Origin: a virus
Taxonomy: Duplodnaviria; Caudoviricetes
Strand: one strand, 5' to 3'
IMG/VR virus record: IMGVR_UViG_3300036861_000061
Coordinates: 1-53,611 of that record
DNA: 53,611 nt
Part shown: piece after piece, positions 4,507-49,082 of the stretch
How the letters are laid out: the number at the start of each line of letters is the position of its first letter
How positions within the stretch are numbered: position 1 is the first letter of the stretch
Notes under the pieces: generated by a model
Told to the model about the DNA's origin: nothing
Database searches by the model: none
The model's input: only the letters and a program-made list of their open reading frames with translations
Position numbers and translations under genes: made by a program

Positions 4507-5439
4507 ATGCCAGCCAACATTGATAGTATGTTTAGTGTCAGAGAAGTTCCTTGGCATGAACAGGGAGTAATCCTAGACGAACCACCCGTAAGTGTCATAG
4601 ATGCACTTCACAAGAGTGGGCTAGATTGGTTAGTTGAAACAAGACCAATCTATATTGAAGATCTAATGGGCATTCATGTTGAAGTTGAACAGTTCAAGGC
4701 TGTTACTAGGATGGATACCCTCACGCCCCTGGGGATCGTAGGAAACCGATACACCCCTGTTCAGAATGTTGATGCCTTCAAATTCCTCGACAACCTCATC
4801 GGCACAGATCTACTATTCGAGACTGCGGGTTCCCTCGGCATTGGACAACGCGTTTGGGTACTCACAAAGGTTCCCGAATTTATTACCATTGGTGGGGATG
4901 ATATTGGGCAGTACGTCCTATTCGCAAACTCCCACGATGGCAAGAGTGCGGTCACAGTCATGGTTACACCTGTGCGGGTGGTATGTCAGAACACACTCTC
5001 TCTAGCACTTAGCAAGCAGACTAAAAATCGCTTCAATATGAGGCACACTCCAAACGTGCATCTTCAGATTGAAGCCGCACGCGATGCACTAGATATGTCC
5101 ATCAACTATAACCAACAATTCAAAGTTATTGGTGATGGACTGGCCAACAGTAGGCTAACCAAAAACAAGCTAGGAAAGATCATTGATGAACTGTGGCCCG
5201 CTGAAAGTGATCGCGCAATTGCTAACCGTGATCAAGCTAGAGATATCATCTATGACCTACATACCTCAGGAGCAACTGTTGGCAATTCCCCTGGAACCAA
5301 GTGGTCTGGACTCAATGCCATTTGTGAATACCTGGACTGGTATCGACCTACACGTGGCGATTCCGATCGTTTCGCTAGAATCAACTTCGAGCCTACTAAT
5401 CCAAAGCAAAAGGCATATGAACTAATAGTGAATAGCTAA
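4507..5439 (+). CDS. DUF932-family phage/plasmid protein
   Basis: Motifs MFSVREVPWH, SGLDW, YTPVQN, FETAGSL, NSHDG, TPVRVVCQNTL and RHT. Confidence 0.9.
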   Translation: MPANIDSMFSVREVPWHEQGVILDEPPVSVIDALHKSGLDWLVETRPIYIEDLMGIHVEVEQFKAVTRMDTLTPLGIVGNRYTPVQNVDAFKFLDNLIGTDLLFETAGSLGIGQRVWVLTKVPEFITIGGDDIGQYVLFANSHDGKSAVTVMVTPVRVVCQNTLSLALSKQTKNRFNMRHTPNVHLQIEAARDALDMSINYNQQFKVIGDGLANSRLTKNKLGKIIDELWPAESDRAIANRDQARDIIYDLHTSGATVGNSPGTKWSGLNAICEYLDWYRPTRGDSDRFARINFEPTNPKQKAYELIVNS

Positions 5440-10733: not shown

Positions 10734-10925
10734 CTATTCCTCAACTTCTTCGATATCGCCTGGCAATACATAATACCTCTCATGTAGCGCCCAATAAAAA
10801 CAGTCAGGATGAGTCCAAAACTGTTGTTGAGGGCGATCACTATCGGGACGAAAAAGACCTACTTCCCATGCCTCTTCCGCATCCATACCCTCATTACAAA
10901 AACAGCATCCAAACTTGATTTCCAT
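10734..10925 (-). CDS. Small Zn-finger-like protein coupled to the Ro60 gene
   Basis: CCFC...HPDC; TAATG overlap with the TROVE stop. Confidence 0.65.
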   Translation of the reverse strand: MEIKFGCCFCNEGMDAEEAWEVGLFRPDSDRPQQQFWTHPDCFYWALHERYYVLPGDIEEVEE

Positions 10926-12529
10926 TAGTTCTTACTAAAGTCACTAATAACCTGGGGAACTGCTGTGTCAAATCCAACGACATCAAGCATCCCTGCATCA
11001 TTCGAGTCAGCAATACTGAAACCATTGGAAGTCATTCCAACAACAACCAGCTTAGCATTTATTCCGGTCTGGTTACGGTATTCCTTGAGCGCTTGAGCAG
11101 GATGAATCCTGCCAGCCCACGTTTCACTGTCGGTGTAAATAATGAACGTTTCTATAGCCTGCCAATTACCCATTGCATACTGCTGACCAGCGGCGACGAT
11201 AGGGAGAGAACAATCCGTCCAACCGAAGTTCATACGCCGCGTCTCACGCAATAGGTCGTCTAGACGTTGACGGGCACTGAAGCCAACAACTGTAAGACCT
11301 TCGGTGAAGGCAGTAACCATACACTGAGGTTCTACTGCAACATGCACCATACACATTGCACAAGAACCTTCCGCCGCAGACAACATCGTGCCAGCCAAAG
11401 ACTGACCCATAGAACTACTAACATCAAGTCCTATCAGGGTCCTCTTGTTGGTCGGTTCTACGTTCCCGAAAGCGGTATAAAACGCAGCGTCCAGCGCATC
11501 TACAACCTTTGCGTCCACATTCCAACTTCCCGCCCCGCGATATCCGTGCCCAGCACTGTACGTCCTGAGGGCCATCAATATCTGTATAGGGTGAATTCCC
11601 GACTTCAGAATATGTTCCTTGTTGGACAGTTGGTCGCATACGATCTTCTCCGCATCCGACATAGGGGAAAGAACACCACTCTTGGAAAAATTGCCAAGAT
11701 TACGCACAAGTGCGATCATAGGCATACCATTCTCAAGAAGCTTCATCTGAACTTTAGGACTAGGAAGCATATCGGTACGTAATGCTTCACGCGGAAGGTC
11801 AGGATATTTCTGTAGGATATTTACAGTAGCCTCAGGACTTGTAGCCGCTTGGGCATGCATGAATGCCTCATGTAAGGGATGCAGCTTCCTATCAACATCC
11901 CCAGGACCAAACTGCTCAACAGCAAACCTAAGTATACCGTCCATCACGGGATCATCAGCCTTAGGATGCGCTAAACGTAACACATCCCTGTGGGTATAAC
12001 CCTCACGCTGACGGTATTTGATTACTTGATAAGCAAGCTTGTCAGGTTCTTTCTCAAGATACCAATTAGCTACCGCAGTACGGAGTCCGCGGGACCATCC
12101 TTTGAACTGATGGACGTATCCGAGGAATTGGAAGAGATGGGTTCCGATACGCGCAACCTTAGGAAGCGCATTATACGCTGCCTTGCGAGTCTCATCATCA
12201 CCGGTTCCCACTGCCATAGCAAGTGCAAATAACGCCGGATCATTCTTAGGTGCCCTCTTACTTGCGGATACGTCAACAATCTTCTGCACCGCGCGAGGAC
12301 CATCCTCAGCGATGCACTCCAACGCGCCAGTCGCGTTGTCAACAGTTAACTTGCGCTCGGAGATGTAATAGGTCCCACCTTCCGAACCAAGAATTAAGAA
12401 GCGCTCTAGGCGCGCCCACTTGTCGATCTGCCACACGAAGCCGCCAGCAGAGTTCGGAACTTGCGTAGAACCCGGTATCGCCTGCAATTGCGGCGTCACC
12501 CTAATAGAGAAACCCTTGTATGCACTCAT
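10925..12529 (-). CDS. rsr: Ro60 / TROVE-vWA RNA-binding protein
   Basis: TROVE N-terminus QVPNSAGGFV...RLERFLILGSEGGTYY and KYRQREGYTHRDVLRLAHP; vWA MIDAS DVSSSM, TDCSLP, YTDSETW and GMLDVVGFD; 534 aa. Confidence 0.96.
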   Translation of the reverse strand: MSAYKGFSIRVTPQLQAIPGSTQVPNSAGGFVWQIDKWARLERFLILGSEGGTYYISERKLTVDNATGALECIAEDGPRAVQKIVDVSASKRAPKNDPALFALAMAVGTGDDETRKAAYNALPKVARIGTHLFQFLGYVHQFKGWSRGLRTAVANWYLEKEPDKLAYQVIKYRQREGYTHRDVLRLAHPKADDPVMDGILRFAVEQFGPGDVDRKLHPLHEAFMHAQAATSPEATVNILQKYPDLPREALRTDMLPSPKVQMKLLENGMPMIALVRNLGNFSKSGVLSPMSDAEKIVCDQLSNKEHILKSGIHPIQILMALRTYSAGHGYRGAGSWNVDAKVVDALDAAFYTAFGNVEPTNKRTLIGLDVSSSMGQSLAGTMLSAAEGSCAMCMVHVAVEPQCMVTAFTEGLTVVGFSARQRLDDLLRETRRMNFGWTDCSLPIVAAGQQYAMGNWQAIETFIIYTDSETWAGRIHPAQALKEYRNQTGINAKLVVVGMTSNGFSIADSNDAGMLDVVGFDTAVPQVISDFSKN

Positions 12530-12756
12530 TTAAACTCCCCGATACGAGCATTTAGTTCTTTGATACGCTTATTATTCCTGAAAATAGAACGGGAATTACG
12601 TAAAGTAATCACAAACATTATAGCACAAAAAGCAAATGCTAAGGAATTAAGCCAATGACCTTCAATCATAAAAGGCACTTGACTCAACACACATATAGCC
12701 ACCAAAATAGGAGCTATATAAGCAACAACCATACTAAATCTCATGACATCCTCCAC
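12526..12756 (-). CDS. Small two-TM membrane protein between the RNA array and Ro60
   Basis: Two hydrophobic segments; stop overlaps the Ro60 start (ATGA). Confidence 0.65.
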   Translation of the reverse strand: MEDVMRFSMVVAYIAPILVAICVLSQVPFMIEGHWLNSLAFAFCAIMFVITLRNSRSIFRNNKRIKELNARIGEFK

Positions 12757-12762
12757 TTATAA

Positions 12763-12832
12763 AGATACAGATAAATTAATGACTAAGGATATTTATCTTA
12801 AGAGGATAACCCTTTGTCTTCGACCCGTATCT
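12763..12832 (-). ncRNA. Y-RNA-like element Y1 (minimal, 70 nt)
   Basis: AGAUACGGGUCGAAGACAAAGG...CCUUAGUCAUUAAUUUAUCUGUAUCU; outer stem, bulged-C helix, middle stem, small hairpin. Confidence 0.8.
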
Positions 12833-12912
12833 AAACTGTCCCCTCAACCCGTCAAGGTTGATATGTTATGGTCCATTACTAAGTGTTCTCAGAGCCATGA
12901 ACCAAGGCTCAG

Positions 12913-13091
12913 GGGGGAAGCTAGGACTTGAACCTAGAACCTTCGGTTCCCTGTAGATAACCCTAACCTATCGACCCGTAACGTTGCGTTTCCCTGCTGC
13001 TTGGCTGAACACCTATTTAATTATATTGTTACGGATAAATTTATTCGGTAGGAATCATAACCAATGCTCTACCAATTGAGCTACTTCCCCC
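12913..13091 (-). ncRNA. tRNA-Y RNA chimera Y2 (tRNA body with a 112-nt Ro-stem insert replacing the anticodon loop)
   Basis: GGGGAAG/CUUCCCC acceptor, GCUC-AAUUGGUA-GAGC D-arm, UUGGU/ACCGA anticodon stem, CUAGG-UUCAAGU-CCUAG T-arm. The insert has AAUUUAUCCGUAAC before GUUACGGGUCGA. Confidence 0.8.
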
Positions 13092-13096
13092 AAGTA

Positions 13097-13249
13097 TTAC
13101 AGCAAGTGCTCAGCACAATACTCAACCAAATGTTCGGCGCACACCCGCAACGGACCACCGCCGCACAACGGATTGCAGAACTGCAGCACTTCGACCACCG
13201 GCCGTCCGCAAGCTGCGTCCCCGACGTACCACCCGCACCCCGCTGCCAT
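13097..13249 (-). CDS. 50-aa Cys-rich mini-protein inside the RNA array
   Basis: GGGGGAGG SD; MAAGCGWYVGDAACGRPVVEVLQFCNPLCGGGPLRVCAEHLVEYCAEHLL. Confidence 0.65.
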   Translation of the reverse strand: MAAGCGWYVGDAACGRPVVEVLQFCNPLCGGGPLRVCAEHLVEYCAEHLL

Positions 13250-13269
13250 CGTATACCTCCCCCATGACT

Positions 13270-13379
13270 GAGCAGATAAGTTATTGAAGTGGAATTTGAC
13301 CAGCACCACGCCTAGGTGAGAATCGAACTCACTCGCCTTCTTTTCAATAGAAGATAATCCACATTCATTCGACCCGCTC
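13270..13379 (-). ncRNA. Y-RNA-like element Y3 (anticodon-like hairpin plus T-arm)
   Basis: GAGCGGGUCGAAUGAAUGUGGA...UCCACUUCAAUAACUUAUCUGCUC; inside are CUUCU-AUUGAAA-AGAAG and GUGAG-UUCGAUU-CUCAC. Confidence 0.8.
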
Positions 13380-13385
13380 GCTGAT

Positions 13386-13483
13386 TAGACAGATAAGTTA
13401 CTAAACTAGAAATCCCTATTTATAGGGCGACCCCAAGGAACACCTTGGCTGGGGAAGATAATCTAATTTACTCGACCCGTCTA
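13386..13483 (-). ncRNA. Y-RNA-like element Y4 (two non-tRNA hairpins)
   Basis: UAGACGGGUCGAGUAAAUUAGA...UCUAGUUUAGUAACUUAUCUGUCUA; inside are CCAAGG/CCUUGG and CCCUA/UAGGG hairpins. Confidence 0.8.
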
Positions 13484-13494
13484 CTACGACTTAG

Positions 13495-13592
13495 TGTAGA
13501 TAAGTTATAGGAATAAGATAGCGGACTCGAACCGCATATAGCCTCTCGAGGCTACTCTTAACCAATAGATAATCTTATTCAATCGACCCGCA
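13495..13592 (-). ncRNA. Y-RNA-like element Y5 (D, anticodon-like and T arms in canonical tRNA order)
   Basis: UGCGGGUCGAUUGAAUAAGAU...AUCUUAUUCCUAUAACUUAUCUACA; inside are UCU-AUUGGUUA-AGA, UAGCCU/AGGCUA and GCGG-UUCGAGU-CCGC. Confidence 0.8.
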
Positions 13593-13636
13593 ACTAGCGT
13601 TACTAAAGTCTTACTTTTATCGTCCACCAAAAAACA

Positions 13637-14002
13637 TTACCAGGTCTCCTCTTCCGTTGCAAGTTCTTCTTGCTTATTAGGCTCTGGGAGAGTAGTAGAA
13701 ATAGAATCAGCAACTATCTCCACATATTCCTTTTTAGGCCCATCTTCAGGAGCATATTCTCTCCATTGAAGACGACCAGTGATATGCACACTTTCTCCCT
13801 GCTTTAATGCATTAACTGGTTCACGATCATTACCAAAAACAAGAACAGTAAAATACTGATTAATCCATTGCATCTCCCCACTAGCATCCTTCTGTCTACG
13901 GGGAGCATTCATCCTAATCTGAGTAGGACCTTTACCTGATGCTCCAGGATTAGGCTTGGGATCAAATGAAAGTCTTCCACTAAGTACAACGAAGTTTGGC
14001 AA
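13637..14002 (-). CDS. ssb: Single-stranded DNA-binding protein
   Basis: NFVVLSGRL, VHITGRLQWREY, EIVADSI and an acidic tail ending in W; GGAGG SD before a TTG at 14002. Confidence 0.88.
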   Translation of the reverse strand: MPNFVVLSGRLSFDPKPNPGASGKGPTQIRMNAPRRQKDASGEMQWINQYFTVLVFGNDREPVNALKQGESVHITGRLQWREYAPEDGPKKEYVEIVADSISTTLPEPNKQEELATEEETW

Positions 14003-14372
14003 TTCTAGCCTCCACTTTACGTTCCTCCCAACCGGGCATCGCGCCAGCATAGCACACCTGACGCGATACCGCCACGATCCAATCACGTTGACGTTCAGTC
14101 AATACAACTACAGGTAGACAAAGGTTGATATGGTCAATCATCGCATAATCATTAATAATTGCTAAGCGTCCACGGGAGAGCCGAGGGACGCTGAGCAGCA
14201 ACTCATACGTCGGCATGTCGCCTAGGCGTTCCATGGGTTGTCGAAGGGCAGCAGCGAGGGAAAGAGAGCCGTCCTTCACATCTCGTTTCACCGCCGCGCG
14301 GGCGCGCTTGCTAATAATTGACTGAGCCTGTGCTTTAGGTTGGGTCTTTAAAGCGTATGAATAATCAGTCAT
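13980..14372 (-). CDS. Actinobacterial integration host factor (mIHF/sIHF)-like H2TH protein
   Basis: RARAAVKRDVKDGSLSL...MPTYELLLSVPRLSR...LTERQR parallels my recollection of the mIHF pattern RARAELKxxLKxG...LLEALPKVGK...LGDRQR. Confidence 0.7.
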   Translation of the reverse strand: MTDYSYALKTQPKAQAQSIISKRARAAVKRDVKDGSLSLAAALRQPMERLGDMPTYELLLSVPRLSRGRLAIINDYAMIDHINLCLPVVVLTERQRDWIVAVSRQVCYAGAMPGWEERKVEARIAKLRCT

Positions 14373-32508: not shown

Positions 32509-32515
32509 CGCACGT

Positions 32516-32588
32516 GCGCCGGTAGCTCAGTGGTTAGAGCGGCAGGCTTATATCCTGTATGTCGTAGGTTCAAATCCTACTCGGCGCA
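32516..32588 (+). tRNA. tRNA-Ile(UAU)
   Basis: GCGCCGG/TCGGCGC acceptor; GCAGG-CTTATAT-CCTGT anticodon arm; canonical D and T arms. Confidence 0.9.
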
Positions 32589-32589
32589 T

Positions 32590-32660
32590 TACCGGCTCGT
32601 CTAAAGGCAGGACATAAGGTTTTGGTCCTTATAATCTAGGTTCGACTCCTAGGCCGGTAG
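32590..32660 (+). tRNA. tRNA-Gln(UUG)
   Basis: TACCGGC/GCCGGTA acceptor; TAAGG-TTTTGGT-CCTTA anticodon arm; G73. Confidence 0.9.
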
Positions 32661-32663
32661 TAT

Positions 32664-32737
32664 GGCGCTATAGACTAATTGGATAAGTCCCTAGTCCTTC
32701 AAACTAGATGATGCGGGTTCAAATCCCGCTAGCGCTA
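32664..32737 (+). tRNA. tRNA-Glu(UUC) with atypical C33
   Basis: GGCGCTA/TAGCGCT acceptor; CTAGT-CCTTCAA-ACTAG anticodon arm. Confidence 0.75.
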
Positions 32738-32741
32738 TTAG

Positions 32742-32813
32742 GCCCCCGTAGCTCAACGGTAGAGCAAAGGTCTTTTAAACCTGAGGTTGTGGGTTCGATT
32801 CCCTCCGGGGGTA
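32742..32813 (+). tRNA. tRNA-Lys(UUU)
   Basis: GCCCCCG/CGGGGGT acceptor; CTTTTAA anticodon loop; one mismatch each in the anticodon and T stems. Confidence 0.88.
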
Positions 32814-45936: not shown

Positions 45937-46434
45937 TTACCAAGCTTGTATCACGTTAGGAATATTAGAAATACTAGGAATATCTTCGCCCCAAATAATC
46001 GCGTTGACCGTACTGGTACCAAACGCACCAAATGGATCAGGAAAGTCTTGGGGAGTAGTTGTTTCTTTATAGTTACCACCAGCATCGCCCTGAAAGTCGA
46101 AATTTTCAGTTGATGCGTGCATGCCCAACCAATACGTTGTGCCGGACACAATGCTAACTGATGTTCCAAGGGTAGCTTGAAACACATCAGTCCCCTGTGC
46201 AACAGTTAGATTATCAACACTTGCTACACCAAGTAATCCGGCAGGAGCACTAGCACTGTTTGCATAAATACCTAACCGAATTGCAGTTGCCGTAGGATTT
46301 GCAACTTTCGTCTGTGCTTTAATAATCACTAATTGTCCCGTGGACAATGCGACAAAATCCCATGCTGCCGTAGTACCCACCGTGACGAAGTCCCCAGTTG
46401 TCCCGGCAGACTGCCGGCCGAGAAGCACAGTCAC
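45937..46434 (-). CDS. Putative virion protein (beta-sandwich-like)
   Basis: IRLGIYAN..AP..LL and GTTYWLG pattern. Confidence 0.65.
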   Translation of the reverse strand: MTVLLGRQSAGTTGDFVTVGTTAAWDFVALSTGQLVIIKAQTKVANPTATAIRLGIYANSASAPAGLLGVASVDNLTVAQGTDVFQATLGTSVSIVSGTTYWLGMHASTENFDFQGDAGGNYKETTTPQDFPDPFGAFGTSTVNAIIWGEDIPSISNIPNVIQAW

Positions 46435-48648
46435 TCAGGGTGCACTCAGGTCGTGGATCTGCGCGAGCTTCGCGTTCGCCGCGTTAAGCTGTGCCTGGCA
46501 ATCCCCTGTGGGCGGATCGCCGCCGACGACGAGCAGGTGCACGCTGCGCGGTCGCAACGCCACGGTCAGCGAATTGTCGGTGGCGACCGGGGCTGCCGCC
46601 ACCATCTCAAGATCGAGATGGCCGGCACCGGCGTCCATCATGTTCGAATGCTGATCGTCCACGAGGTAGTGCGTGACCGACTTCCCCGAGTACCCCGTCG
46701 GCAGCTGCACCTTCACGGACGGCGTAACGTCTTTGCGGTAGCGCAAATGCGACAGCAGGATCGACAGGCTCCCAACCGCGTCCTTCGACGCCTGCGCGAA
46801 GACGCCCGGTTGACCGACGTAGCTTGACGACACAATCGTCGGCTTGAGCATGCTCCACTGGCGAAAGACGTTGAGGTTCGCCCATGGATTCAGCCGGGAC
46901 ATCAGGCCGCTGGAATCAAAGCCGTCGAGCAGCCCGTCGGTCGCAGTCCCAAACGAGCCATCCTCCGCGACGGGACTGGTATAGACGGCGTACGCAACGC
47001 CAAGACGTTGCATTTCGATCAGGCTCGCGGCGACGAACGCTGCGTGCCAGTCATTGCGGTGATACTCGAATGTGCGCCACGGCGGAACGCCCTGGCCGTG
47101 AAAGTTGCGAATCTGCCAGCACCACTCGCCGACCGCTATGAACGGCACAGGATTCAAGCCGTACTGTGTCGCCCACTGCGTGACCTGCATCCGCGCACGG
47201 TTAAGTTCGCCGAGATTGCCAGAGTAGTAATGCCAGGAGATGAAATCCAGCGGCACGCTGTGAGTGGCGCAAAACTGGATGAGGTTCTTGACCCAGTCCG
47301 TGTTGAAGTCCGCAAAGTCCCCCGCCCCGACCTTCACGGTCGGATCGACCAGCTTGATTGCACCAACAGTCGCGACATACATGGCATGGAATTGGTCCTG
47401 TGTACCGGCCCAGCCGGAACCATCGGGCTCATTCCACACCGACCAGTAACGAACATCGTGGCCGACCTCGATGAGGGTGTGATACACGAGGTCGCGCACC
47501 ATTCGTCCCCACGCCTCATTGTCGTTCGGCGGGATGTTGCAGTAGTTCGCAAAGTCAGCGCGCGTCGTCGGCCCGGCTGGCACACCATCAAGCTGTCCAC
47601 CTGAGTAGGGCTGCACATTGCCCCCCAGTAGTGTCGGCGTTGACCCGGCGTCACCGATGGTCGCCATCCCAAGTCGCGTGTGATAATCCAACGTGCGGTC
47701 CACCACACGCCAGTCATAGGAATACGCACCACTGATGCCCGAAGTCGGGTGCGCCACATCGGGGGCGCCCGTCTTGATCGGCGTCACGCTGAGATACTTG
47801 CCGGATCGCAGGCCCGTGACGGCCTTGGTAGGGATCTGGGCCATCGTCTCGGTCGCAGGCACGGAGAGCGTCAGCAGCCCACCGAGCAGTTTCTGATTGA
47901 CAGTCGCGCCGATCGTCGTGTTCACAGTCAAGACGTTGAGATCATCGACCGTAATCGACTGGCCGGGTGTGCGCGCCTTGCGACTGAGACGTAGATCCGA
48001 CAGCGACCAGCCATCCGCGCCGGCACCATTGAATCCGAGGATCATCAGACCGGTCGTCGCGCTCGGACTCGCCATTACCGCAGGCGCACCGACGTTCGTC
48101 ACAGTGCCGACCGCCGTCCCGTTGACGTAGAGCCTCAAGACACCACCGACGAACGTGATTGCAAGGCTCACCCACTGGCCAGCAGGGATCGTCGGAGTGG
48201 GCTCATAGACGAGAACTGCGGAAACGGGTGCGGTAGCCTGATTGTGGAAGAACCGAAGCACCATCACGTTCTGATGAATGTCGAGCATCAGGGCTTCGTC
48301 GGCGGACAAGCCCAGCGAAAAGAGGTTCGCGCCAAAGGCGTTCGCCCATGACACATCGCCCTTCACGAAGAACTCAATTGTGAACTCGCGGGCGTCCAGC
48401 AAACCCTCTATCGGCATCCACAGAAACCCGTTCGGCCGCACATAGCAGTGGACGCCCCTGCGGTATTTGCCCGGCGCGTCGCGGATCTTCGAGGTCGCCT
48501 GCCACGGCGCGCCATCGGTCACCGGATCCGCCATGATCAGCCCACCGGCGCCCGGCAGCAGAAGCTTCTCCACATCGGCGTCGAACAGGTACAACGTGTC
48601 CGCCTCAACGGACTGTTGGGCAAGGGGATCCCAAACGGTCACAGTCAC
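46435..48648 (-). CDS. LamG plus GH39-like (clan GH-A) glycoside hydrolase
   Basis: FTIEFFVK/LYVNG LamG; YDWRVVDRTLD, YWSVWNEPD (acid/base), LDFISWHYY, VGEW (nucleophile). Confidence 0.85.
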   Translation of the reverse strand: MTVTVWDPLAQQSVEADTLYLFDADVEKLLLPGAGGLIMADPVTDGAPWQATSKIRDAPGKYRRGVHCYVRPNGFLWMPIEGLLDAREFTIEFFVKGDVSWANAFGANLFSLGLSADEALMLDIHQNVMVLRFFHNQATAPVSAVLVYEPTPTIPAGQWVSLAITFVGGVLRLYVNGTAVGTVTNVGAPAVMASPSATTGLMILGFNGAGADGWSLSDLRLSRKARTPGQSITVDDLNVLTVNTTIGATVNQKLLGGLLTLSVPATETMAQIPTKAVTGLRSGKYLSVTPIKTGAPDVAHPTSGISGAYSYDWRVVDRTLDYHTRLGMATIGDAGSTPTLLGGNVQPYSGGQLDGVPAGPTTRADFANYCNIPPNDNEAWGRMVRDLVYHTLIEVGHDVRYWSVWNEPDGSGWAGTQDQFHAMYVATVGAIKLVDPTVKVGAGDFADFNTDWVKNLIQFCATHSVPLDFISWHYYSGNLGELNRARMQVTQWATQYGLNPVPFIAVGEWCWQIRNFHGQGVPPWRTFEYHRNDWHAAFVAASLIEMQRLGVAYAVYTSPVAEDGSFGTATDGLLDGFDSSGLMSRLNPWANLNVFRQWSMLKPTIVSSSYVGQPGVFAQASKDAVGSLSILLSHLRYRKDVTPSVKVQLPTGYSGKSVTHYLVDDQHSNMMDAGAGHLDLEMVAAAPVATDNSLTVALRPRSVHLLVVGGDPPTGDCQAQLNAANAKLAQIHDLSAP

Positions 48649-49082
48649 TCATCCCACGCAATATAAAAGTCGCAAATTTGTCCAGTACCAGTAGGAGTAA
48701 CTATCACGACACCGGACGTTGTTGCATTTTCTAGGATGAACTCACCAGGACCCCACGTCCAGATAACGCCAGAACCGACAGCCGCTCCTAAAGAAGCCTG
48801 CTTGTCGAGAACGGCGTTAATAGTTGCATCTACTGTATGAGTCTGGGCTCCTGTCGCCACAGCCACCTTAGAAAAGTCAGATTCAGGAACAGGAGTTATC
48901 GCTGCTCCCTTAGTCCCGGTAGCACTTGCACGTCCTACTCCAATAGCAAGTGCTGTTGAGGTTGTATTGAATATTCCAATTTCACGTATCTGCGGTCTAA
49001 CGGCAGCAGTCGCGTAAACAGAGGGTCCACGCGCTGCGGTTGGAACAGCAGCCATACGTCCTGATATTGCAAATCTAGCCAT
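48645..49082 (-). CDS. Putative virion protein
   Basis: Ala/Thr-rich; ends YIAWDE; GTGA overlap. Confidence 0.65.
   Translation of the reverse strand: MARFAISGRMAAVPTAARGPSVYATAAVRPQIREIGIFNTTSTALAIGVGRASATGTKGAAITPVPESDFSKVAVATGAQTHTVDATINAVLDKQASLGAAVGSGVIWTWGPGEFILENATTSGVVIVTPTGTGQICDFYIAWDE

Follow-up and report, generated by a model that had tools for sequence, protein, structure and literature searches.

Y RNAs are thought to tether Ro60 to a partner, with the binding target of the tRNA-like end left open (Chen 2014; statements from this paper refer throughout to the parts of it drawn on here). YrlA runs in the order V, T, closed acceptor stem-loop and D, with the Ro stem at the anticodon-stem position (Chen 2014; Wang 2018, preprint), while the T and D arms of Deinococcus radiodurans Yrn1 are oriented opposite to those of YrlA and an intervening stem-loop takes the anticodon-arm position (Chen 2014). 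Yrn1 can be represented as a structure with D-loop features, an 'anticodon arm' of 5 base pairs (bp) with a loop of 6 nucleotides (nt), and a T arm; its T loop carries pseudouridine, no dihydrouridine was found in its 'D loop', and its D arm is called uncertain (Chen 2014). The T loops of YrlA and Yrn1 are both TruB substrates (Chen 2014). In Thermus phage phiLo, the RNAs Yrl1 and Yrl2 bind the phage Ro60 and form complexes with host PNPase, according to the part of that study drawn on here (NAR 2025, PMC12135203), and PNPase as a Ro60 partner has a precedent in Deinococcus (Wang 2018, preprint). Here we analysed Y5, a Y-RNA-like unit at 13495-13592 (minus strand) of IMGVR_UViG_3300036861_000061 (Duplodnaviria; Caudoviricetes), a complete virus record (53,611 bases, about 44% G+C) that has direct terminal repeats and makes up the whole window. 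Compared by description, Y5 has the layout of a Yrn1-type, canonical-orientation tRNA-like Y RNA, and it belongs to a recurrent family that Rfam models do not recognise.

The elements of Y5, read 5' to 3' along the minus strand, are as follows.

13581..13592, minus: 5' strand of the Ro-type bulged helix, UGC-GGGU(C)GA-UU, with C13585 bulged; the motif is common to units Y1-Y5 and covaries with the 3' strand across 134 units

13572..13580, minus: 5' strand of the 9-bp stem at the acceptor position, GAAUAAGAU, pairing with 13519-13511 in both the minimum free energy (MFE) and centroid structures

13556..13571, minus: U8-A9-like UA linker (13571-13570) and D-like mini arm UCU[AUUGGUUA]AGA (13569-13556), in the MFE structure and absent from the centroid

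13538..13555, minus: anticodon-position hairpin G-UAGCCU[CGAG]AGGCUA-U, 6-7 bp with a 4-nt CGAG tetraloop and no anticodon loop

13521..13535, minus: T arm GCGG[UUCGAGU]CCGC with canonical T-loop letters; U13536 and U13520 on either side may form a fifth pair (U.U)

13511..13519, minus: 3' strand of the 9-bp stem, AUCUUAUUC, paired in the MFE and centroid structures

13495..13510, minus: 3' strand of the Ro-type helix, with a CUAUAAC bulge or internal loop (13510-13504), UUAUCU (13503-13498) and ACA (13497-13495)

The closing helix pairs 13592-13581 with 13503-13495, and within it GGGU(C)GA (13589-13583) faces UUAUCU through the pairs G.U, G-C, G.U, U-A, (C bulge), G.U and A-U. The MFE structure (RNAfold) is exactly the nested cloverleaf, with all four helices perfectly paired. 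An earlier note on this DNA had described a middle stem acting as acceptor helix, a D-like arm with a GG loop, a UAGCCU/AGGCUA hairpin lacking a 7-nt anticodon loop, and a T arm with UUCGAGU; each of these is present on the minus strand and within the MFE structure, and sequence and fold agree that a tRNA-ordered module is joined to a Ro-type helix through the acceptor-position stem. The proposal that the conserved UUAUCU doubles as tRNA positions 8-12 holds as to the doubling, although the motif (13572-13567, minus) is one base longer and spans positions 7-12. That this is a new, second mode of fusion does not stand: the tRNA-to-Ro-stem layout is not new in principle, being known for Deinococcus Yrn1, whose orientation is described by Chen 2014, and it recurs in other rsr loci.

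The assignment of Y5 as a Y RNA is well supported, and we consider it very probable. Five Y-RNA-like units (Y1-Y5) lie on the rsr strand in the interval between the SSB gene and rsr, the phage gene for the Ro60 orthologue, and Y5 is the first and most SSB-proximal of them. It starts 44 nt past the SSB stop, and its end (13495) precedes the rsr start (12529), on the strand they share, by 966 nt, which lies within the distance by which bacterial and phage Y RNAs are recognised, up to about 4 kb from the Ro60 gene and on its strand (Chen 2014). The GGGUCGA motif is common to all five units, as are a 5' CGGGUCGA, an (A/G)UUAUC that follows after 8-9 nt and, at the 3' end, (A)AYUUAUCU. The ends of Y1, Y3, Y4 and Y5 pair, GGGU(C)GA with UUAUCU and the C bulged, and the flanking pairs vary yet stay paired (AGAC/GUCU, GAGC/GCUC, AUAC/GUAU and UG-/-CA). 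The protein-contacted 5' strand is quoted as GGUCCGA and GNCGAA(N)G (Chen 2014); GUCGAU of Y5 matches GNCGAA at 5 of 6 letters. Judged from its letters, the GGGU(C)GA/UUAUCU helix is of the bulged Ro60-binding type of animals and Deinococcus, and we infer that Y5 binds Ro60.

Comparative evidence came from 240 rsr loci (80 each from IMG/VR, metagenomes and species genomes), which were searched together with a 6-kb stretch of the record around rsr (241 sources) for units of the form GGYCGR..RUUAYC. Distinct Y units numbered 440 on the rsr strand vs. 8 on the opposite strand. Among 134 units with the 3' anchor A(C/U)UU(G/A)(C/U)C, the fourth position of the Ro helix was C/G in 87, U/A in 43, U/G in 3 and C/A in 1 (Fisher P = 2.6e-30, uncorrected for relatedness), with the units of the studied record carrying the U-A form. 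A pattern scan of IMG/VR with GGGTCGA..GRTTATCT returned 119 stretches, nearly all with a single site and probably due to chance; only L044 (3 sites) and L074 (2 sites) were array-like.

Beside rsr in the surveyed loci, some plain hairpin Y units reach the gathering score (38) of Rfam RF01656, nematode sRNA ceN72-3_ceN74-2 (L169 2702-2775, 38.1 bits; L343 2289-2358, 44.9 bits). We take this family to be stem-bulge RNAs, relatives of Y RNAs. The matches suggest that the animal-type two-stranded Ro helix is kept in these plain units.

Y5 is neither YrlA nor a tRNA. The Rfam YrlA model (RF02553; 114 positions, cut-off 69 bits) gave no match over Y5 at E ≤ 10 in a search of the whole record, where its only matches were fragments, in the D arm of Y2 (11.5 bits) and the T arm of Y3 (8.8 bits). 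The Y_RNA model (RF00019, cut-off 38 bits) gave no match in the record at E ≤ 10, and all 4227 Rfam families, tRNA (RF00005, cut-off 29 bits) included, gave nothing at E ≤ 10 when run on 13485-13605 alone (121 nt). ARAGORN with default settings found nothing over Y5. At the 80% threshold it returned a 'tRNA-???' (ga) at 13578-13510, a call that carries no weight because the record yields 42 such calls and shuffles of it (53.6 kb) yield 21-32. The order of arms in Y5, D-like, hairpin and T, with the T arm abutting the closing stem, is opposite to that of YrlA, and this, together with the lack of an Rfam match, separates the two; the loop at the anticodon place has 4 nt (CGAG) rather than 7, and the acceptor-place stem runs into the Ro helix with no free end. 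The earlier note's view that Y5 is distinct from YrlA is thus borne out, the YrlA model giving no alignment at all, let alone one from end to end, and its proposed comparison of covariance-model scores ended with no match to either the YrlA or the tRNA model. Its separation of Y5 from Y2 also holds, since Y2 has free tRNA-like acceptor ends and the Ro motif inside.

Y5 belongs to a recurrent family. A covariance model built from Y5 alone (self-match 121.8 bits) was run over all 240 loci, and the architecture of each match was inspected by eye and by folding. The best full-length matches had the Y5 architecture, were all on the rsr strand and fell into three groups.

Viral contigs: L140 (32.5 bits) and L170 (30 bits)

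Metagenome contigs: L222 (29.5 bits), L248, L243, L241 and L280

Metagenome-assembled genomes (MAGs) of Actinomycetota, Solirubrobacterales/-aceae and Conexibacteraceae: L309 (29 bits), L331, L367, L325, L317 and L313

A 3- or 4-bp hairpin with a UGG-containing loop stands directly after UUAYC in 12 of 14 sequences, Y5 included, in variants such as UCU[AUGGGC]AGA, UCU[CAUGGGC]AGA, UCU[CCUGGUAA]GGG, CCU[GUGGAA]AGG and CGAG[UCUGGCC]CUCG. In an alignment of 13 sequences to the single-sequence model, which was fitted to the Y5 structure and so favours it, 90.3% of the cells assigned to helices were paired, compared to 69.2% in shuffles (0 of 500 as high) and 38-49% with the partners slid. By helix, pairing was 82.2% at the 9-bp acceptor position (both sides changing in 7 of 9 pairs), 97.2% in the D-like helix, 93.6% at the anticodon position (7 of 7 pairs changing on both sides, with length and sequence varying among relatives) and 100% in the T helix, which is nearly invariant (GCGG/CCGC in 12 of 13).

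A family model built from these 13 sequences, Y5 among them, gave 159 matches at E ≤ 0.1 over the record and the 240 loci, all on the rsr strand. Fifteen units scored at least 50 bits, from Y5 and 14 other rsr loci, with Actinomycetota MAGs and two viral contigs among them: the 13 training sequences plus L217 (52 bits) and L313 (65.3 bits) from outside training. Matches below 50 bits were mostly other types of Y unit with the same handle. Y5, itself a training sequence, scored 84 bits and has the GG-loop mini hairpin, the variable hairpin and the GCGG T arm of the family. The single-sequence model found no match at E ≤ 1 in the actinophage rsr loci of Sixama, I3 and Blueeyedbeauty. We found no description of the family in the Y RNA, Ro60 and YrlA literature, though the supplements of Chen 2014, which lay outside the search, may list such units. 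What supports Y5 beyond chance is comparative: rsr-strand specificity, covariation of the Ro helix, and inner helices kept in 13 sequences.

We propose that Y5 is a phage-encoded Y RNA with a compact, canonical-order tRNA-like core that works as set out here, a reading to which we give a little better than an even chance. One transcript would run from the SSB and recombination genes through the five Y units into rsr, and Y5 would then be cut out of it. Co-transcription with rsr followed by processing is the simplest reading because no promoter or terminator frames the units and the spacers between them are short (given as 6-12 nt, with 177 nt between Y3 and Y2). A scan of 12300-14200 found 5 promoter-like sites (3.7 ± 2.1 in shuffles) and 4 terminator-like sites (1.6 ± 1.7 in shuffles), none of which frames Y5; co-transcription and processing have been reported for the Deinococcus and Mycobacterium smegmatis arrays (Chen 2014). 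The ends of Y5 would pair into the bulged helix GGGU(C)GA/UUAUCU as a handle for the phage Ro60 protein. The other half would form an anticodon-less tRNA-like module in normal tRNA order, with the 9-bp stem in the acceptor place followed by the 3-bp D-like GG-loop hairpin, the variable hairpin in the anticodon place and the canonical T arm, in the orientation of Yrn1 and not that of the permuted YrlA. The GG loop may dock on the T loop, giving a tRNA-type elbow that caps the long Y stem, and host TruB would likely make pseudouridine in the T loop. Folded in this way, the module could protect the RNA, and its effector end could gate Ro60 or tether it to a host partner such as PNPase.

The D/T elbow itself is plausible from the letters of Y5, with the chances close to balanced. 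Bases are in place for U8-A14, A21, G18-U55, G19-C56, U54-A58, G53-C61 and purine 57, and the GG loop is kept in the Y5-type family, which has no other D arm, whereas same-place hairpins in YrlA-order units with a true D arm have no constant GG. A series of observations weighs on the other side. The folding energy of Y5 is ordinary for its composition (z = −0.47; 63 of 200 shuffles fold at least as well), so that the case for its structure must rest on comparison, and the centroid structure omits the 3-bp D-like stem. The 5' half of that stem is the UUAUCU motif common to nearly all Y units, so its conservation is not independent evidence, and most of the changes in the stem are one-sided, from U-A to U.G. 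The GG loop is missing from L170 and L280 (2 of the 14 sequences), and a 3-bp GG-loop hairpin at the same offset occurs in 18 of 243 units without a T arm, so it can arise by chance. Between the hairpin and the T stem, Y5 has a junction of 2-3 nt, its actinobacterial relatives one of 0-1 nt and tRNA one of 4-5 nt; pairs number 3 in the D stem, 4 plus the U.U in the T stem and 9 in the acceptor-place stem. Neither the tRNA model on the 121-nt stretch nor default ARAGORN detected a tRNA.

Several of these points would also fit if the T arm were the only tRNA-derived working part, as reported for M. smegmatis YrlB and D. radiodurans RNAs a and b, with the other hairpins acting as spacers (like the YrlA V region after YUAY), no elbow, and a cloverleaf look that any three hairpins closed by a stem would give. 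We hold this to be possible, though on the unlikely side. YrlA-order units also have a hairpin between UUAYC and the T arm (e.g. L219, L295 and L297), the mini-D pattern in T-arm units lacking a strict D arm (13 of 120) is barely above its frequency in units without a T arm, and the centroid, the tRNA model, the very short junction in relatives and the Yrn1 'D loop' lacking dihydrouridine, with its uncertain D arm (Chen 2014), all sit comfortably with spacers. The class counts are a rough background only because the rule for 3-bp GG hairpins is noisy: by eye, 5 of 13 'miniD->T' calls proved to be of other types, and the rule had put several true members in other bins. Against spacers stand the UGG loop kept in 12 of 14 members, from Actinomycetota MAGs, viral contigs and the studied phage, where the V hairpins of YrlA-order units have no constant GG, the U8, A14 and A21 equivalents in place in Y5, and the true D arms of fuller nested tRNA-like units with the same topology.

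Those fuller units occur at four distinct loci, where the Rfam tRNA model matches inside a Y-type stem (L164 repeats L161).

L351, 2099-2170 (unit 2081-2191): nested tRNA, 53 bits

L161, 5050-5116 (unit 5004-5142, L161/L164): nested tRNA, 46.9 bits, 9-nt loop

L285, 646-714 (unit 628-733): nested tRNA, 43.4 bits

L175, 1867-1929 (unit 1822-1955): nested tRNA, 41.9 bits

In three of the four, folding gives 7-nt anticodon loops, reading GUU, CUU and CAC. These units may either mimic tRNAs or be genuine tRNAs in which leader and trailer together make up a Ro60 site, and Y5 looks like the stripped-down end of a series that begins with full nested tRNA-like inserts. The existence of such units, and the score of Y5 below the reporting limit of the tRNA model, would also suit a Y5 that is a decayed relic of a nested tRNA gene, having lost its anticodon loop, with the module unselected and only the Ro handle perhaps mattering. 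We judge such decay improbable: 14 other loci of unrelated origin show the same pared-down design with its pairing preserved, Y5 retains an intact T loop and G53-C61 equivalent, and all four of its helices are perfectly paired. The chance that the repeats are instead DNA-level sites (replication-origin iterons, or operators in a replication and recombination module) or a short coding region, as the position of the array amid SSB, AAA_25 ATPase, exonuclease and RusA genes and the four- to fivefold repetition of GGGTCGA and TTATCT might suggest, is negligible, given that the unit type tracks rsr and not replication genes in hundreds of unrelated loci (strands 440 vs. 8), that paired positions covary as RNA helices, G.U included, and that no open reading frame (ORF) of at least 60 amino acids (aa) overlaps Y5.

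The proposed Y RNA with a compact tRNA-like core would share its handle and its stretch of DNA with four other units.

13495..13592, minus: Y5, whole unit, nested cloverleaf, with the MFE structure closed by the terminal helix

13386..13482, minus: Y4, Ro helix as in Y5 plus two plain hairpins and no T arm

13270..13379, minus: Y3, Ro helix as in Y5, hairpin CUUCU[AUUGAAA]AGAAG, T arm GUGAG[UUCGAUU]CUCAC, then a further stem; its T arm (13332-13300) gives the weak match to the YrlA model

12913..13090, minus: Y2, terminal tRNA-like acceptor, D and T arms enclosing GGGUCGA..GGGUUAUCU; partial match to the tRNA model at 13090-13032 (18.6 bits), and the D arm matches the YrlA model as given above

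12765..12830, minus: Y1, plain hairpin Y unit

One Ro handle with five ends on one transcript-sized stretch (plain hairpin, two hairpins, T arm, free-ended tRNA and nested mini-tRNA) makes a small natural test set. A wider interpretation, of which we are doubtful, is that the phage carries five Ro60 handles with different effector ends, including tRNA mimics in opposite topologies (Y2 with free ends, Y5 nested via its acceptor end), that Y5 is a deliberately minimised, anticodon-less elbow that would aim Ro60, with PNPase or another nuclease, at elbow-reading machinery or soak such machinery up, and that the Y5-type family would form a distinct, undescribed class of Y RNA. Candidate targets within that interpretation are RNase P, TruB, the ribosomal L1 stalk or E site, and a tRNA-directed anti-phage nuclease. 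If the nested form makes a true elbow, the elbow would sit at the tip of the Y stem, as opposed to the side in YrlA, and an elbow-binding partner would be placed differently relative to the Ro60 ring. Across the loci, the matches suggest that the canonical orientation, for which Deinococcus Yrn1 has been the known example, occurs widely, in forms between full tRNA-like inserts and stripped-down cores, and its spread bears on the origin of Y RNAs from tRNAs. The permuted YrlA form is nonetheless the commoner of the two, judging from at least 60 YrlA-order units in the rough regular-expression survey.

Units of the Y2 type, with free acceptor ends, D and T arms, and the anticodon arm replaced by a long insert that holds the Ro60 motif, were also observed in L146 (2578-2703), L136 (2761-2880 and 2570-2690) and L154 (2689-2844), where the tRNA model spans 120-156 nt and scores 46.9, 44.9 and 44.7 bits. 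The Y2 type corresponds to YrlA in circularly permuted form and, it seems, is common among viral rsr loci. A viral contig (L161/L164, 4849-5559) has at least six Y units downstream of rsr in four designs, among them three plain hairpins, one nested tRNA and two of YrlA order, and is richer than the array studied here.

Within the record, the genes that bound the array are as follows.

10925..12529, minus: rsr, Ro60 orthologue of 534 aa (Pfam TROVE 1e-36, vWA_Ro60 7.6e-60)

13637..14086, minus: SSB gene, upstream of rsr on the same strand

Genes for an AAA_25 ATPase, an exonuclease and a RusA resolvase also lie upstream of rsr on its strand, and the 1.1-kb SSB-rsr interval holds no convincing ORF. 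Between Y1 and rsr, a 76-aa ORF (12526..12756, minus) overlaps the rsr start by 4 bases; it matched no Pfam or PHROG family and had only weak membrane-protein-like matches (E about 0.09). The ORFs immediately downstream of rsr matched no family in PHROGs or Pfam. The 177-nt spacer between Y3 and Y2 (13093-13269, minus) has 60% G+C compared to about 44% in the record, with an unremarkable folding energy (z = +0.27), no Rfam match, and two overlapping ORFs of 67-70 aa that have no Pfam family. Elsewhere, an island of 57-61% G+C (46001-49000) covers an ORF of 737 aa (46435..48648, minus). Five tRNA genes, Leu-UAA at 2820-2900 and Ile-UAU, Gln-UUG, Glu-UUC and Lys-UUU at 32515-32813 (all plus), are on the strand opposite to rsr and distant from the Y array, while many other phage rsr loci interleave tRNAs and Y units.

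Relatives of the phage Rsr protein numbered 8000, with a top identity of 66%. An IMG/VR scan with the single Rsr protein returned no relative, and alignment-based Rsr scans of IMG/VR, which succeeded, placed the nearest Rsr there at 55% identity, i.e. no close phage relative. The Y region (12800-13700) had no match among GenBank phages by blastn in distant mode. The DNA sequencing runs found to hold the record were two soil metagenomes, one of them perhaps its source, and none of the runs listed was RNA.

Compared with described systems, Y5 resembles YrlA (RF02553; Salmonella, Mycobacterium and mycobacteriophages) as a Y RNA linked to Rsr whose effector module is tRNA-like, and both have a T arm of the type GCGG(G)UUCGAnUCC(C)GC and a YUAY/UUAYC motif after the Ro stem; it differs in that YrlA is circularly permuted with a full D arm, whereas in Y5 the order of the arms is reversed and both the closed acceptor hairpin and a full D arm are missing. 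In M. smegmatis, Rsr binds YrlB as well as YrlA, and YrlB has 'a possible T-arm' (Chen 2014); Y5-type units in Actinomycetota MAGs share arrays with YrlA-order units. YrlB is flanked by YrlA and rsr, while Y5-type units occupy the most upstream place, in a comparison of classes by description only. Yrl1 and Yrl2 of phage phiLo are, like Y5, phage Y-like RNAs upstream of a phage Ro60 gene, but they are stem-bulge-stem RNAs with a CGAA motif, and the part of that study drawn on here does not mention a tRNA-like module (PMC12135203).

With tRNA (RF00005), Y5 shares the order acceptor, D, anticodon arm and T, the U8-A9 linker, an A..GG..A in the loop at the D position, and the T loop UUCGAGU closed by G-C, and differs in lacking a 7-nt anticodon loop, in its 3-bp D stem and 2-3-nt variable region, and in a closing stem of 9 bp that leads on into the Ro helix and leaves no free CCA end. 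D. radiodurans Yrn1 (Chen et al. 2000, 2013, 2014) is likewise encoded in an array of several RNAs that precedes rsr on its strand, and the two have in common recognisable strands of the Ro60-binding helix, a T arm, D-loop-like features 5' of the anticodon-position stem-loop, and the Ro stem at the acceptor position. Yrn1 is described as having a stem of 5 bp, a loop of 6 nt and no clear D arm, whereas Y5, which is phage-encoded, has a 6-7-bp stem with a tetraloop and a 3-bp GG-loop hairpin, the likeness between them being drawn from descriptions.

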